From Armatimonadota bacterium (lineage in GTDB: Bacteria > Armatimonadota > Hebobacteria > CAIYQO01): DNA of 26,743 nucleotides. The stretch spans positions 1-26,743 of the forward strand of contig JAKIYB010000004.1 of NCBI GenBank assembly GCA_022708765.1, in the 5' to 3' direction. Numbering within the stretch: the stretch's first letter is position 1; each line of letters starts with the position of its first letter. This document shows positions 1 to 26,743 of the stretch, one piece after another. The notes beneath the pieces were generated by a model that searched no databases, was not told where the DNA came from, and was given only the letters and a program-made list of their open reading frames with translations. The position numbers and the translations under genes were made by a program.

Positions 1-850
1 CGCCGAGCACCGGCACCCCGCCGATGACCGGCCCGATCACCGGAATCGCGCGTGCCAGTCCGGCAATGACGCCGAGGAGCAGCGCCCCCGGCACGCCCAG
101 CGCGATCATGCCGATCGTCACCACCGCCCAGGCGATGACGACGAGCACGATCTGCCCCTGGATGTATCGGCGGAAGATGCGGTCCATGCCCCCGCCATAG
201 CGCAGCACGCGCTCGCGAAACTGTCCCGGCACGAAGAATAGCACTTGCTCGCGCACCGCCCGTGAATCGGTGAGGAAATAAAAGGCGATGAGCGGCACGA
301 AGATGAGTTCGACGATAAGCCCGGCCCACTTGCCGATATGCTCCACCATTCCCAGCGTCCACGCCGCGAGTTGACCGGTGAATTCGGACTTCTGCAGTTC
401 GCGCTGCAGGTCGGCGGCGATCTGCGCGCGAACCTCGGCGGGCACGTGCGCCAGATACCAGGCCTGCAATTGCTCGACCTGCGCGGGCAGCTTGCCCTGG
501 GTGAAGGTGGTATAGAGCTCGGTGGCTTGCGCCTTGATCGTGCCGACGATAGCGGTGCCCATCCCCACCAGCACGCCGGCGATAAGCAGGTAAATGATCA
601 GCACGGCGGCCACGCGCACGGCGTGCGCACGGCGCAAGCGGGTGGCGCGCACTGCCCACTCGACTACCGGCTGCAGCAGATAAGTGAGCACAGCCGCCAG
701 CAGCAATACGGTGGCGGCGGAGCGGAAGTAGCGCTCGAAAAGGAGGAAGACAATGACGATGACGGCGGCGATGAGGAGGCCGTAGAGCAGCATCCGCCAC
801 CACGGCGTGGGGGCGGGCGCAAGCGCCGTATCGCCAGATTGGGCTACCAT
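1..850 (-). CDS. AI-2E (PerM-like) family transporter, 3' end truncated by window edge
   Basis: Manual translation from ATG at 850 with AGGAG RBS: MVAQSGDTALAP...LIFVPLIAFYFLTD...RYIQGQIVLVVIAWAVVTIGMIALGVPGALLLGVIAGLARAIPVIGPVIGGVPVLG. Multiple hydrophobic helices and FYFL.D / Y..GQ / IP.IGP motifs. Not in the ORF track because there is no stop in the window. Confidence 0.85.
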   Translation of the reverse strand, partial: MVAQSGDTALAPAPTPWWRMLLYGLLIAAVIVIVFLLFERYFRSAATVLLLAAVLTYLLQPVVEWAVRATRLRRAHAVRVAAVLIIYLLIAGVLVGMGTAIVGTIKAQATELYTTFTQGKLPAQVEQLQAWYLAHVPAEVRAQIAADLQRELQKSEFTGQLAAWTLGMVEHIGKWAGLIVELIFVPLIAFYFLTDSRAVREQVLFFVPGQFRERVLRYGGGMDRIFRRYIQGQIVLVVIAWAVVTIGMIALGVPGALLLGVIAGLARAIPVIGPVIGGVPVLG

Positions 851-15621: not shown

Positions 15622-15661
15622 CCCCCCTCTACCTTTGGGAGAGGGGGCCAGGGGGTGAGGG
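15622..15661 (+). repeat. REP-like palindromic repeat, copy 1
   Basis: CCCCCCTCTACC-TTT-GGGAGAGGGGG-CCAGGGGGTGAGGG. Confidence 0.75.
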
Positions 15662-15800
15662 CCGCGCGTAAGCGCCGTTCTCACCCGCTGGTATACGTTT
15701 GTCCGTATATGCGGCTCGATAAAGTTCACAAATCATCAAAATCACGGTATAGCAGAATTGCCCGTAATAGTCCGTCTGTCTGTGTACCTCCACGCCCTTT

Positions 15801-15862
15801 CCCCTCTCCCAGCCAGGATGGCGGCTGGGGGAGGGGTGGCCTTCAGGCCGGGGAGGGGTGAG
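15801..15862 (+). repeat. REP-like palindromic repeat, copy 2 (extended variant)
   Basis: CCCCTCTCCCAGCC...GGCTGGGGGAGGGG, then a GGCC-TTCA-GGCC hairpin, then GGGGAGGGGTGAG. Confidence 0.65.
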
Positions 15863-22605: not shown

Positions 22606-23402
22606 CCGGTCTGCCCCCGCGCGAACTCGCCACCTCGACGAAAGCACACTGGCATGTCGCCGGTGTGTCGGTGCGCGGTGTCTCGCACGTGAAGCGGAAT
22701 CAACCCTGCCAGGACGCCCACTTCTGGCGGGAATTCCCCGGCGCCGCCATGGTCGTCTCCGTAGCGGACGGCGCCGGCTCCGCCAGCCTGTCGCAGCTTG
22801 GCGCCGCGCGCGCCGCTGTTTCATCGGTGGATTGGGTCGCGGAGTTGATGAACGGGCAGTTGCCCATGCTCGACGAGGAGTGGCGACAACTGCTGCTGGC
22901 CGCGCTGGAAACCGCCCATGAATCGGTGACCACCGTCGCGGAAAAACGCAAGGTTACCACCCGCGAACTTGCCACCACGCTCATTCTCGCCATCGTAACC
23001 CTGGATACCGTCGCCTGCGTACAGGTGGGCGATGGTGCCTGCGTGGTGCTGACCGAGGAGGGCGAGGTCGAATCGGTCACCGCCCCGCAGCGCGGCGAGC
23101 ATCTCAACGAAACGTTCTTTTTTACCGCACCGAATTATCAGGAAGCCGCGCAGTTTTCCATCTGGCATGGCTCCGTGCGCGGCGTGGCGGTTTTTTCCGA
23201 CGGCTTACAAATGCTGGCGCTGAAGATGCCGGAAGGCCGGCCGCATCCCGCGTTCTTCATGCCGCTGTTCGACATGGTAGCCGCGCAGGAAAACACGCGA
23301 GAGGTGGAGGAGGAGTTGCGCGTGTTCCTCCAGTCCGACCGTATTACCGCACGCGCGGATGACGACCTGACGCTGGTCGTAGCCTCGATTCATCATCTCT
23401 AG
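22602..23402 (+). CDS. PP2C-like protein phosphatase (YegK/PphC type)
   Basis: SVRGVSH...PCQD, VADGAGSA, QVGDG, FSDGLQ, DDDLTL motifs. GTG start overlaps the vWA stop (GTGA). Confidence 0.92.
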   Translation: MTGLPPRELATSTKAHWHVAGVSVRGVSHVKRNQPCQDAHFWREFPGAAMVVSVADGAGSASLSQLGAARAAVSSVDWVAELMNGQLPMLDEEWRQLLLAALETAHESVTTVAEKRKVTTRELATTLILAIVTLDTVACVQVGDGACVVLTEEGEVESVTAPQRGEHLNETFFFTAPNYQEAAQFSIWHGSVRGVAVFSDGLQMLALKMPEGRPHPAFFMPLFDMVAAQENTREVEEELRVFLQSDRITARADDDLTLVVASIHHL

Positions 23403-23417
23403 CGTCAGGATAAGCCC

Positions 23418-24488
23418 ATGCGATTGCGACTTGAGCGAAGTGGAGAAATCCTCACTATCGCCGCCAACCCGATAGCTCGGGGCGGTGAAGCATGCTTGTA
23501 CCCCATCATCGGCACTGAGCTGCTGATCGCGAAGGTGTATCACCGCCCCACCGGCGACCGCGCGATGAAGCTGGAAGCGATGATCGCCCGCCCGCCGGTT
23601 GACCCGATGTCCACCCGTGGGCACCCATCCATCGCCTGGCCGACTGAGCGGCTCTTCACCGAGGAGGAACCGGCACGCTTCGTCGGATACGTCATGCCGC
23701 GCGTGGACAACATGCGACCGGTATTTTCCTTCTACAATCCGCGCACGCGGCGGAAAACCTGCCCGCTGTTCCACTACCGCTATCTGGTGCGCACCGCGCG
23801 CAACCTGGCGGCGGCGTTTCGCGCGCTGCATGAGCGCGGCTACGTGGTGGGCGACGTGAATGAATCCAACGTGCTGGTGAGCGAGACCGCCCTGGTCACG
23901 CTGGTGGATACCGACTCCTTCCAGGTGCCGGCGGAGGGGGGCGTCTACCGTTGCCCGGTGGGCAAGCCGGAATATACTCCGCCGGAGCTGCAGGGGGTGC
24001 GCTTCCGTGAAGTGGACCGCAAGCCGGAGCATGATAACTTCGGATTGGGCGTGCTGGTGTTCCTGCTGCTGATGGAAGGCACCCATCCCTTCGCCGGGCG
24101 CTATACCGGACCCGGCGACGTGCCGCCCCTGCCCGATCGCATCCTCGCCGGGCATTTCCCCTACAGCGCCATGCGCAAGGGACCGTACGAACCGATGTCC
24201 ACCGCGCCACCCATCGGCCTCCTGCATCCCGAGGTGCGTAACCTGGTGCGGCTCTGCTTTGATCACGGCCACGCCAACCCGTCGGAGCGTCCGACTGCCG
24301 CCGACTGGCAGCAGGCACTGGATCACGCGGAAAACAGTCTCACCACCTGCAAGACGAATCCGCAGCACGTCTTTCGCACCGGGTTCGGCGCGTGTCCCTG
24401 GTGCCAGCGCGCCGAGCGACTCGGGTTCGACACCTACCCGTCAAAGGAAGCCGTGCGCGAGGCGCTGCTGGCCAGCGCCGCATCCTGA
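23418..24488 (+). CDS. YegI-type Ser/Thr protein kinase with C-terminal Cys/His cluster
   Basis: GGEA, AKVYH, VGDVNESNVLV, LVDTDSF, GKPEYTPPELQ, DNFGL, C...PQH...CPWC. Confidence 0.92.
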   Translation: MRLRLERSGEILTIAANPIARGGEACLYPIIGTELLIAKVYHRPTGDRAMKLEAMIARPPVDPMSTRGHPSIAWPTERLFTEEEPARFVGYVMPRVDNMRPVFSFYNPRTRRKTCPLFHYRYLVRTARNLAAAFRALHERGYVVGDVNESNVLVSETALVTLVDTDSFQVPAEGGVYRCPVGKPEYTPPELQGVRFREVDRKPEHDNFGLGVLVFLLLMEGTHPFAGRYTGPGDVPPLPDRILAGHFPYSAMRKGPYEPMSTAPPIGLLHPEVRNLVRLCFDHGHANPSERPTAADWQQALDHAENSLTTCKTNPQHVFRTGFGACPWCQRAERLGFDTYPSKEAVREALLASAAS

Positions 24489-24490
24489 CG

Positions 24491-24967
24491 TTACGCGCCG
24501 CCCAGGCGCTGCTCCTGGTGATACGCGCGCAGGCGCTGTAAATGATTCGCTGACTCCGCGGACAACCGCTGCAGCGTCGTGCGCGCCCGCGTGTCGTCGC
24601 TCTCAAACACGTCGAAAAATCCGCGCTCGACGAAGGACTCTTCGATATCAATGCCGATGGCCAGCGCCGCCGACAGCGACAGGCCGTAGGCGTCAACTTC
24701 GCGTATTCGCTCGCGCAGGTAGCCGAGGAAGGTTCGGAAGGTGTCGGGGGCGAAACGGTTCTCACGGAAGGTGATCACCCCGGCCTGCAGCTTGTCCGCG
24801 AGATTGCGCACCCAGGTGGTGTGCGCGTCTTCTTCCCGCGCCAGGCCCTCCCAGAACGACTGATGCTCGGAAAAACAGCCGGCATAACGCCGATACAGCC
24901 GCGCTGTTGCGTCTTCGATTTCCGCAAGCAATTGCATGGCGTCCAGGTTCTGGTCAACTGTTGCCAT
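24491..24967 (-). CDS. Ferritin-like / rubrerythrin-family four-helix protein
   Basis: EIE...LY, LAREEDAH, DIEES and LSAESANH give a repeated E...E/ExxH pattern. GGAGG RBS before ATG 24967. Confidence 0.75.
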   Translation of the reverse strand: MATVDQNLDAMQLLAEIEDATARLYRRYAGCFSEHQSFWEGLAREEDAHTTWVRNLADKLQAGVITFRENRFAPDTFRTFLGYLRERIREVDAYGLSLSAALAIGIDIEESFVERGFFDVFESDDTRARTTLQRLSAESANHLQRLRAYHQEQRLGGA

Positions 24968-24993
24968 TCGCTCCACCTCCAAATCGCGCCGTT

Positions 24994-25022
24994 ATCATAC
25001 ACCGTATCCGATTTGTTGTATA
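24994..25022 (-). promoter_or_regulatory. Putative promoter for the ferritin-like gene
   Basis: TATACA-17 nt-TATGAT. Confidence 0.5.
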
Positions 25023-25100
25023 TTCTTCCTTTTATTTATCAGTGTAGATGATAAGGAACCGCGCGGGGAAGGGACGACCGCGGGCCGTGCCGTTCGTCTG

Positions 25101-25129
25101 TTTACGAATAGCCGCGTTTCTGGCACACT
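25101..25129 (+). promoter_or_regulatory. Putative promoter giving a leaderless transcript
   Basis: TTTACG-17 nt-CACACT with TGn extension, 6 nt before ATG 25136. No Shine-Dalgarno visible. Confidence 0.4.
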
Positions 25130-25135
25130 GTGGGT

Positions 25136-26743
25136 ATGCCGTACCGTATTGGAATTGACGTTGGCGGCACCTTCACCCATGCGGTGGCGGTGGATGCCGA
25201 GACGCTGCGGGTGACGTTTCAGGCGAAAGTGCCTACCACGCACCGCGCCGCTGAAGGTGTGGCGCTGGGCGTCACGCAAGCGCTGCGCGGCCTGCTGGAG
25301 GCGGGGGTGCGCCCTGGCGAGGTGATCTTCATCGCGCACTCTACCACCCAGGCCACCAACGCGCTGCTGGAGGGCGACGTAGCGCCGGTCGGCGTCATCG
25401 GCATGGCGCGCGGCGCCGACGCGCTGAAAGCGCGCAAAGACACCGAGATTGGCCGGTTGGAAGTGGCCCCCGGCCGCTTCCTGGAGACCGTCCACGCTTT
25501 CATCAACTCCGATGGCCTGACGGCGGAGGGTCTGCGCGCGGCGGTGGAGGAACTGCGCGGGCGCGGCGCCCAGGTCATCGTCGGCGCGGAAGCCTTCGGG
25601 GTGGACGACCCCACCAATGAGCGCGCGCTCCTCGATGTCTGCGCCGAGATGGGCATCCCCGCCACCGCCAGCCATGAAGTCTCCGGCCTCTACGGCCTGC
25701 GCATTCGCGCGCGTACCGCGGTCATCAACGCCAGCATTCTTCCGAAAATGGTGCAGACGGCGCAGATGACCGCGCGCGCGGTGACGGAGGCCGGCATCAG
25801 CGCGCCGCTGATGATCATGCGCAGCGACGGCGGGGTGATGAGTATTGACGAGATGCGTCGGCGGCCGATCCTCACCATTCTCTCAGGCCCCGCCGCCGGC
25901 GTCGCCGCCGCGCTGATGTATGCGAAAATCAGCGACGGCATCTTCGTCGAAGTGGGCGGCACCTCCAGCGATATCACCTGCATCCGCAACGGCCAGGCTG
26001 CCGTGCAAAGCGCCACCCTGGGCGGACACAAGCTCTTCCTGCGCACCCTCGACGTGCGCACCATCGGCCTCGCGGGCGGCAGCATGGTGCGCGTCAAAGA
26101 CGGCAAGGTCGTCGCCGTCGGCCCGCGCAGCGCCCACCTCGCCGGCCTCGCCTATAGCTGCTTCGCCAAAGAGCTTTCCCCCTCGCCCTCCGTGGGAGGG
26201 GGCCGGGAGGAGGATTCCGACGTTAGGCGCACTCCCCCTCTCCCTGTGGGGGAGGGGGCCGGGGAGTGGGGTTCGGCGTTAATCCAACCCCTCGCGAACG
26301 ATCCCGCCGATTACCTCGTCGCCGTCAACGGCGAGACGCGGCTCGCGCTCACCATGTCCTGCGCGGCCAACGCCGCCGGCTACGTGCCGGAGGGCGACTA
26401 CGCGCGCGGCGATGGAACGCTGGCGGCGCATGTGCTGGCCGAAGCGCTGCACGCTGAACCGGTCGCGGCGGCGGAGCAGGTGCTGACCAGCGGCTGCGCG
26501 CAGGCCGTCGGCACGGTCGAGACGCTGCTGCGCGACTACGGCGTCCCGCGCGAGCACGTCACCCTCATCGGGGGGGGCGGCGGCGCCGGCGCCGTGGTGC
26601 CCTACACGGGCACGATGATGGACCTGCCCTGGCGCATCGCCGAGAACGCGCCGGTCATCTCCGCCATCGGGGTGGCGCTGGCGCTGGTGCGCGACACCGT
26701 GGAGCGCACCATCCCCAACCCCTCCCGCGAGGATCTGCTGCGC
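25136..26743 (+). CDS. Hydantoinase/oxoprolinase-family protein, 3' end truncated by window edge
   Basis: Manual translation: MPYRIGIDVGGTFTHAVAVD, HSTTQATNALLEG, MRSDGG, LSGPAAG, EVGGTSSDI, DVRTIGLAGGS, GGGGGAG, SAIGVALA. Open to the window end, so absent from the ORF track. Confidence 0.92.
   Translation, partial: MPYRIGIDVGGTFTHAVAVDAETLRVTFQAKVPTTHRAAEGVALGVTQALRGLLEAGVRPGEVIFIAHSTTQATNALLEGDVAPVGVIGMARGADALKARKDTEIGRLEVAPGRFLETVHAFINSDGLTAEGLRAAVEELRGRGAQVIVGAEAFGVDDPTNERALLDVCAEMGIPATASHEVSGLYGLRIRARTAVINASILPKMVQTAQMTARAVTEAGISAPLMIMRSDGGVMSIDEMRRRPILTILSGPAAGVAAALMYAKISDGIFVEVGGTSSDITCIRNGQAAVQSATLGGHKLFLRTLDVRTIGLAGGSMVRVKDGKVVAVGPRSAHLAGLAYSCFAKELSPSPSVGGGREEDSDVRRTPPLPVGEGAGEWGSALIQPLANDPADYLVAVNGETRLALTMSCAANAAGYVPEGDYARGDGTLAAHVLAEALHAEPVAAAEQVLTSGCAQAVGTVETLLRDYGVPREHVTLIGGGGGAGAVVPYTGTMMDLPWRIAENAPVISAIGVALALVRDTVERTIPNPSREDLLR
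26178..26271 (+). repeat. Two tandem REP-like palindromes (copies 3 and 4) inside the hydantoinase-family CDS
   Basis: CCCCCTCGCCC-TCCGT-GGGAGGGGG-CCGGGAGGAGG and CCCCCTCTCCC-TGT-GGGGGAGGGGG-CCGGGGAGTGGGG. Same family and orientation as 15622-15661. Confidence 0.8.

Follow-up and report, generated by a model that had tools for sequence, protein, structure and literature searches.

The window examined here, the whole stretch of 26,743 nucleotides that forms the complete contig C444 of an Armatimonadota metagenome-assembled genome (MAG; G000), ends inside a gene for a HyuA-like protein of the hydantoinase/oxoprolinase family, and this gene carries, in frame, two tandem copies of a short GC-rich repeat (Table 1). 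Judged by the layout of its sequence, the repeat is a G/C-rich intrastrand triplex motif of the class described as BoxC, PIT, or TMECO. We consider it likely that such a motif entered a loop-encoding segment of the gene in the common ancestor of G000 and its sister species (G002), was subsequently doubled, and is now read through and tolerated.

An original prediction, made from the letters of the window alone, proposed that two copies of a repeat reside in this coding sequence without breaking its frame, and that the codons they contribute (CTT, GTT, AGG, ACT, CCT, and TTA) are atypical. Both proposals hold. The open reading frame (ORF) reads ...YSCFAK-ELSPSPSVGGGREEDSDVRRTPPLPVGEGAGEWGSAL-IQPLANDPADY..., exactly as had been anticipated, and no stop codon occurs within the insert. 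Pfam assigns Hydant_A_N to residues 6-174 and Hydantoinase_A to residues 193-522, the latter as a single stretch that crosses the insert. Copies A and B are direct repeats that are 78% alike with a period of 56 nt, a spacing that places them in different reading frames (SPSP..GGG and PPLP.GEG). Codons of the insert have a mean log-odds of -0.05, compared to +0.32 and +0.36 in the flanks, with negative values for all six codons named above, and the G+C content at third codon positions (GC3) is 0.76 compared to 0.85 and 0.93 for the flanks, the last value being that of the downstream side.

Orthologs that lack the repeat have a shorter segment at this site. Counted from GPRSAH to DPxDY, the segment of five other genera of the family has 37-39 residues and that of the congener G001 has 37, compared to 44 in G002 (protein P0001), which carries one decayed copy at the same site, and 65 in G000. 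The gain is therefore about 28 residues over the family baseline and 21 over the sister species, in agreement with the prediction that roughly 30 residues had been added to a loop. No other part of the alignment varies as much in length as this site, which also differs in length across phyla. In the AlphaFold model, which resembles A-type subunits of acetophenone/acetone carboxylase, caprolactamase, and N-methylhydantoinase, residues 348-376 have a predicted local distance difference test score (pLDDT) below 50 (30-32 across the insert), and residues 347-380 have no secondary structure, being flanked by a short helix (343-346) and a strand (381-385). The insert is thus modeled as a disordered loop that is compatible with the fold.

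Each unit of the repeat consists of a C-rich block, a short loop, a complementary G-rich block, a linker of 2-3 nt, and a second G-rich block, which is a mirror image of the preceding one. Copy B is the better preserved of the two. Its stem comprises 10 Watson-Crick pairs and one G-T pair among 11 positions, and it is recovered by a generic three-block search. Its core spans 38 nt (26234-26271), each block being 11 nt long and the loops 3 and 2 nt, and its nearest genomic relatives form a "TGAA-loop" subfamily that includes a pair of motifs around a DUF559 gene on contig C620. The named relatives of the proteins encoded in the window are from Armatimonadota.

Table 1. Coordinates of the insert-carrying gene, the copies of the repeat, and their component blocks. 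Positions are those of the window, except in the last two rows, which refer to contig C620 of the same MAG.
Feature	Position	Strand	Sequence or remarks
HyuA-like hydantoinase/oxoprolinase-family gene	25130..26743, open at contig end	+	first 538 codons, stop-free
In-frame inserted segment	26171..26284, ~residues 348-385	+	ELSPSPSVGGGREEDSDVRRTPPLPVGEGAGEWGSALI; absent from family orthologs
Copy A, candidate triplex motif (degenerate)	26177..26225	+	in-frame peptide SPSPSVGGGREED; one bulge in stem
Copy A, pyrimidine block	26177-26191		followed by loop GT
Copy A, purine block	26194-26202		GGGAGGGGG; followed by linker CC
Copy A, third block	26205-26213		GGGAGGAGG; followed by tail ATTCCGACGTTA
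Copy B, candidate triplex motif (well preserved)	26233..26281	+	in-frame peptide PPLPVGEGAGEWG
Copy B, pyrimidine block	26234-26244		CCCCCTCTCCC; followed by loop TGT
Copy B, purine block	26248-26258		GGGGGAGGGGG; followed by linker CC
Copy B, third block	26261-26271		GGGGAGTGGGG; followed by tail TTCGGCGTTA
Intergenic copy	15622..15670	+	motif at 15622..15661, CCCCCCTCTACC TTT GGGAGAGGGGG CCA GGGGGTGAGGG
Intergenic copy, long-loop subfamily	15800..15860	+	same superfamily as copies A and B
Motif beside DUF559 gene	144-181	-	third block outward; copy B subfamily
Motif beside DUF559 gene	665-702	+	third block outward; copy B subfamily

Integrity and probable translation of the insert-carrying gene

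The gene has been kept under purifying selection while carrying the insert. Between G000 and G002, the ratio of nonsynonymous to synonymous divergence (dN/dS) is 0.144 upstream of the insert (344 codons) and 0.136 downstream (154 codons) at a dS of 0.33, although these pairwise values average over the time since the split and are blind to very recent inactivation. When G001 is used as the outgroup, 6 amino acid changes fall on the G000 branch and 15 on the G002 branch. Because constraint downstream of the insert requires that ribosomes arrive there in frame, the insert is probably translated, and this is our main argument for read-through. One predicted tryptic peptide that crosses the insert starts with TPPLPVGEGAGEWGSALIQPLANDPADY.

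The blindness of dN/dS to recent events weighs against our reading, as do several other observations. HyuA-like orthologs are 706-714 amino acids long, and about 175 codons at the 3′ end are lost to the end of the contig; the C-terminal part encoded by this missing 3′ third of the gene has no match elsewhere in G000. An independent NCBI assembly, MWAH01000408.1 (L004), equals window positions 23203-26743 except for a deletion of GC (26361-26362; L004:3159) that lies 80 nt downstream of the insert and frameshifts the gene (protein P0005). Furthermore, no full-length two-copy allele is present in the protein or contig collections searched, and the best match in a metagenome scan for such an allele is the single-copy form. 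Finally, the 56-nt period is not a multiple of three, and a duplication route therefore needs extra indels.

Some of these observations would be expected if the gene were a pseudogene, or were becoming one, such that insertion or duplication of the repeat inactivated the enzyme and the open frame is merely left over. The truncated gene whose C-terminal part is not found in the MAG and the frameshift in MWAH01000408.1 fit this possibility, and triplex motifs are reported to be associated with local indels and to raise sequence instability within about 500 nt (Holder et al. 2015, Nucleic Acids Research, PMC4666352). However, the two flanks of the insert each have a dN/dS of 0.14, the G000 branch has no excess of changes, the 538 codons available are free of stops, the high GC3 persists downstream, and the single-copy allele is full length (714 amino acids) in several metagenomes. 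In addition, a difference of 2 nt between short-read assemblies may be an assembly error; the GC deletion could be this, a real variant, or the result of motif-associated instability. Given this evidence, inactivation of the gene seems unlikely to us.

We give still less credence to an artefact in which intergenic repeats were misplaced into the gene during assembly. The MAG is indeed fragmented (4.68 Mb in 778 contigs, 78% complete, 62% GC), repeats are known to break assemblies, and the window contig and MWAH01000408.1 end at the same base. Nevertheless, an artefact is unlikely because the second assembly carries an insert identical to that of the window. Moreover, a diverged copy occupies exactly the same junctions in the sister species, and the insert is in frame with colinear homology on both flanks. 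Together, these observations make a misplaced repeat scarcely credible.

Gene order upstream of the hydantoinase-family gene (window 23418-24982) is the same in the sister species (L001:422-2783). The conserved genes encode a PP2C phosphatase, a Ser/Thr kinase, and, on the opposite strand, a protein of 158-163 amino acids without a Pfam family.

Probable origin of the two copies and insertions in other genes

At the corresponding site in G002, the DNA reads CTT-CCCCCTTCTCCC-GCC-GGGGGCGAGGGG-TGGG, a single decayed motif whose third block is mostly gone and whose stem is partly lost. Its 5′ junction (CTT|CCCCC) is that of copy A, and its 3′ junction (...ATCCA) is that of copy B. Because this decayed copy sits at the same junctions, the insertion is likely to be older than the split between G000 and G002. 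The sister allele is found on a 133-kb contig and in three other metagenomes, representing at least four independent metagenome contigs; JGI samples 3300010344 and 3300009715 contain it.

G000 and G002 differ by 63 nt at the insertion site, and this difference could have arisen either by duplication in G000 or by loss in the sister species. Local duplication of the 56-nt unit is favored because copies A and B have in common a tail of 10-12 nt (ATTCCGACGTTA and TTCGGCGTTA), which is missing from the rest of the subfamily in the genome. We envision that, in the common ancestor of the two species, a repeat of the BoxC/PIT/TMECO class would have inserted into a segment for a surface loop that is variable in length and modeled as disordered, and that the tandem doublet in the G000 lineage most likely arose by local duplication or slippage of the 56-nt unit together with small indels that brought back the frame, unless the sister species lost one of two copies. 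Only outcomes that preserve the frame would have survived, and the element is free of stop codons because it is almost devoid of A and T. Read-through would yield a peptide of about 37 residues that is rich in Pro, Ser, Gly, and Glu and that is probably tolerated rather than useful.

No target-site duplication is recognizable at this site or at the insertion site in the PabB-PabC gene described below. Several loops in other orthologs were considered as decayed copies. Those of P0007, P0013, and P0010 (TPSPTGRDDY and TPSPGGREDY) are encoded by DNA without a convincing hairpin and were not used. The P0002 loop (PLQHGEEAGGW) resembles a decayed copy B at the level of the peptide.

The suggestion that this repeat family colonizes coding sequences is borne out by at least four further genes in G000, in which the presence of the motif varies among congeners. 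Motifs were scanned for open spanning frames with coding-like flanks, and each candidate was compared with Pfam and with its orthologs from as many as five relatives; because the scan required an open frame, the absence of frame-breaking copies was checked only loosely. Five of 134 motifs lie inside genes (the HyuA-like gene and the four others), all of them in loops or linkers, and empty sites for such insertions are seen in relatives.

In a PabB-PabC fusion, an insert of 43 residues (..HPLLPELGEGQGMRACAGARNHN..) has no counterpart in any of the five relatives examined; the inserted DNA is about 130 nt long, and the motif forms its core. A MidA-type methyltransferase has the insert YPSPSGGGAGEGS, which is missing from G002. 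The G001 ortholog of this protein (L124, G001:C115) has a larger insert at the same site with an internal tandem duplication of 14 residues (GVGEGSDHSKALNR|GVGEGSDHR). The linker between the UvrB-interaction and RID domains of Mfd contains two copies in both G000 and G002, a single copy in G001, and no copy in G006 or G008. Lastly, a Wzy_C-like membrane protein carries an antisense copy in an inter-helix loop, which is also present in G002 and is absent from G001 and G008. As a separate observation, the genome search match of the G001 MidA ortholog contains one TAA.

It might be proposed that the insert has been co-opted, either as RNA or DNA prone to form hairpins, triplexes, or G-quadruplexes that modulate translation speed, mRNA stability, or mutation rate, or as a functional acidic Gly/Pro loop. 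The G blocks of copy B (G5-A-G5-CC-G4-AGT-G4) fit the canonical G-quadruplex pattern, a 126-nt RNA spanning the insert is predicted to fold at -63 kcal/mol (ViennaRNA, hairpins only), and inserts persist in two species separated by a dS of 0.33. However, neither RNA nor DNA folds better than shuffled sequences (z = -0.08 to -1.4, with -0.08 for the insert RNA), and for this reason the folding energies add no support beyond the visible hairpins. The sister copy has lost its third block and part of its stem, and structure is therefore not conserved. Furthermore, the peptides are not the same in the two species, the inserts of other genes lie in various frames and orientations, and Holder et al. 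(2015, PMC4666352) found that the E. coli motifs lack promoter and terminator activity and do not form a stable triplex in vivo. Co-option is accordingly an improbable alternative to tolerance.

Another idea is that the insert never reaches the mature protein. The "byp" bypass elements of yeast mitochondria are GC-rich and form hairpins, and in these respects resemble the elements described here; an insert of this type might be removed by RNA processing or skipped by translational bypass. In contrast to what bypass would allow, the copies inside ORFs all keep the frame and lack stop codons, neither of which is needed for bypass, although an open frame was a precondition of the search. Features of introns or inteins are absent, and Rfam at gathering thresholds reports no family in the window. 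Removal or skipping of the insert is therefore very improbable, and we favor ordinary read-through.

Distribution of the motif and its association with DUF559 genes

The three-block search, which demands a pyrimidine block followed by its complement and by a third block rich in G, yields 134 sites in the 4.68-Mb G000 genome and none in the reversed sequence. Among 139 tight hairpins in this genome, 74 have no coding flank and 10 have coding sequence on both flanks. The pattern is present in 64 of 151 Armatimonadota genomes sampled, some with more than 200 copies, whereas a control pattern occurs approximately zero times. Inverted pairs in which a minus-strand motif is followed by a plus-strand motif 68-71 nt away are common in G000, and many such pairs are found in its relatives.

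Two intergenic sites in the window had been taken as the same repeat. The site at 15622 is indeed the same motif, but the one at 15801 is a member of a different, long-loop subfamily within that superfamily. This long-loop variant has at least 12 near-identical copies with conserved flanks (including those on contigs C86, C188, C189, C190, C240, C283, C323, C345, and C720) and reads CCCCTCTCCCAGCCAGGATGGCGGC.GGGGGAGGGG, after which come a second GGCC..GGCC hairpin and GGGGAGGGGTGAG. Because these near-identical copies share conserved flanks, the long-loop variant is part of a longer repeat unit.

Members of another subfamily, with ACGT or ATGT loops, are conserved for about 45 nt on each side in at least 12 copies (..CATGCCGTCATTTTTCCTTATCAATC[motif]CGCGCGTGACGG..; contigs C11, C39, C166, C488, C610, C149, C31, C35, C302, and C775), and this subfamily resembles the terminus of some larger repeated element or gene.

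The motif co-locates with genes for proteins of the DUF559 family (PF04480). G000 has three such genes. The ORF at positions 281-565 of C620 is bracketed by an inverted pair of motifs (locus L137, C620:144-702), whereas near the second gene there is only decayed motif-like sequence and near the third there is nothing of the kind. Among the 14 DUF559 genes of four motif-rich Armatimonadota genomes, every one has a motif within 450 nt on at least one side, and 11 have such a motif on each side, compared to a single weak DUF559 match in five motif-free genomes. Genome G127, with about 195 motifs, has no DUF559 match. Inverted doublets with third blocks pointing outward also occur alone (contigs C175, C346, C538, C603, C774, and C739), an arrangement like that of miniature inverted-repeat transposable elements that has the layout seen around DUF559 genes but no gene.

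One tentative explanation, which we consider possible but doubtful, is that the DUF559 nuclease (Vsr-like, PD-(D/E)xK) drives a mobile cassette whose ends are the motifs, and that solo motifs and doublets are nonautonomous derivatives that sometimes land in genes. Mobilization of the motif by this nuclease is our inference from the co-location. If it is correct, stop-free in-frame copies would survive in loops and linkers, and slippage would give rise to species-specific loop lengths. Such a process would amount to a general, hitherto undescribed way for proteins to gain segments across bacterial phyla, and would account for a family of repeats that is still an orphan after 30 years. No paper in the literature searched combines DUF559 with BoxC or triplex motifs. 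Published work leaves the origin of BoxC-type repeats open, and the tight flanking of DUF559 genes provides a testable candidate for how these repeats spread.

Relation to known repeat families

The repeats had originally been called REP-like, after repetitive extragenic palindromes (REPs). The likeness is real in that REPs and REPINs are also short GC-rich hairpins of high copy number that are mostly extragenic and often arranged as inverted doublets. However, the repeats are not of the type associated with RAYT transposases: G000 has five Y1_Tnp (PF01797) genes, and none of the five has a motif nearby. Also, copies A and B lack the end tags of the GTAG/CGTC-tagged REPs (Di Nocera 2013, PMC3733652) and possess a third G block. 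The label is better replaced by that of a three-block candidate triplex motif associated with DUF559 rather than with Y1 genes.

In-frame insertion of small dispersed repeats is already known. The original prediction pointed correctly to Rickettsia as a precedent, but such cases are less rare than it implied, given the documented examples of RPE (Ogata et al. 2000), Bordetella BRE, pneumococcal BOX, RUP, and SPRITE, and Coxiella QMITE (Delihas 2011, PMC3184786; Wachter 2018, PMC5896051). The Rickettsia RPE is similar in that a dispersed palindromic repeat enters conserved genes at tolerant positions, keeps the frame, and adds a peptide that is absent from orthologs. The two repeats are nonetheless unrelated. 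RPEs are 105-146 nt long, compared to a core of about 38 nt for the Armatimonadota element, which is also extremely GC-rich, has a third block of the triplex type, has undergone tandem duplication within a gene, and resides in a free-living, high-GC lineage.

The repeat class itself has been published. Holder et al. (2015, PMC4666352), citing earlier work by Bergler, by Bachellier, and by Hoyne and Maher, equated the TMECO motifs of E. coli (for example, CCCTCTCCCTGTGGGAGAGGGCCGGGGTGAGGGC), which are G/C-rich class II triplex motifs, with BoxC and PIT (potential intrastrand triplex) and reported motifs of the TMECO type in more than 260 genomes. According to that study, the single strand forms a triplex in vitro but not in vivo, and the motifs are always intergenic in E. 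coli K-12, often occur as inverted pairs, and are not tied to known mobile elements. The dimensions of copy B given above agree with the ITxF criteria of the same study (about 34-37 nt, loops of 1-6 nt, stems of 6-15 nt, and no more than one mismatch). Moreover, TMECO type B of its Table 1, CCCTCTCCC TGT GGGAGAGGG CCG GGGTGAGGG, is nearly identical in places to copy B, CCCCCTCTCCC TGT GGGGGAGGGGG CC GGGGAGTGGGG. The three-block layout, size (34-38 nt), and short loops are common to both, as are multiple copies, a mostly intergenic location, frequent inverted pairs, and local indels and decay. Evidence for the triplex from circular dichroism and nuclear magnetic resonance pertains to the E. coli motif, and by analogy the Armatimonadota motif is a candidate for triplex formation.

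Relative to the literature searched, what is new is that a repeat of the BoxC class resides in frame in conserved genes, that it does so in Armatimonadota, and that its copy number at a given site varies among congeners. With zero, one, or two copies per site within a single genus, loop insertions can be watched as they arise, duplicate, and decay. These findings also carry a warning for annotation, as low-complexity loops rich in Pro, Ser, Gly, and Glu in proteins from high-GC MAGs may be derived from repeats. The element differs from E. coli BoxC as follows. The host lineage is Armatimonadota, which goes unmentioned in the study of Holder et al.; the motifs bracket DUF559 genes; and copies sit in frame inside at least five genes, showing that a class regarded as strictly intergenic in E. 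coli can occur within conserved enzymes.

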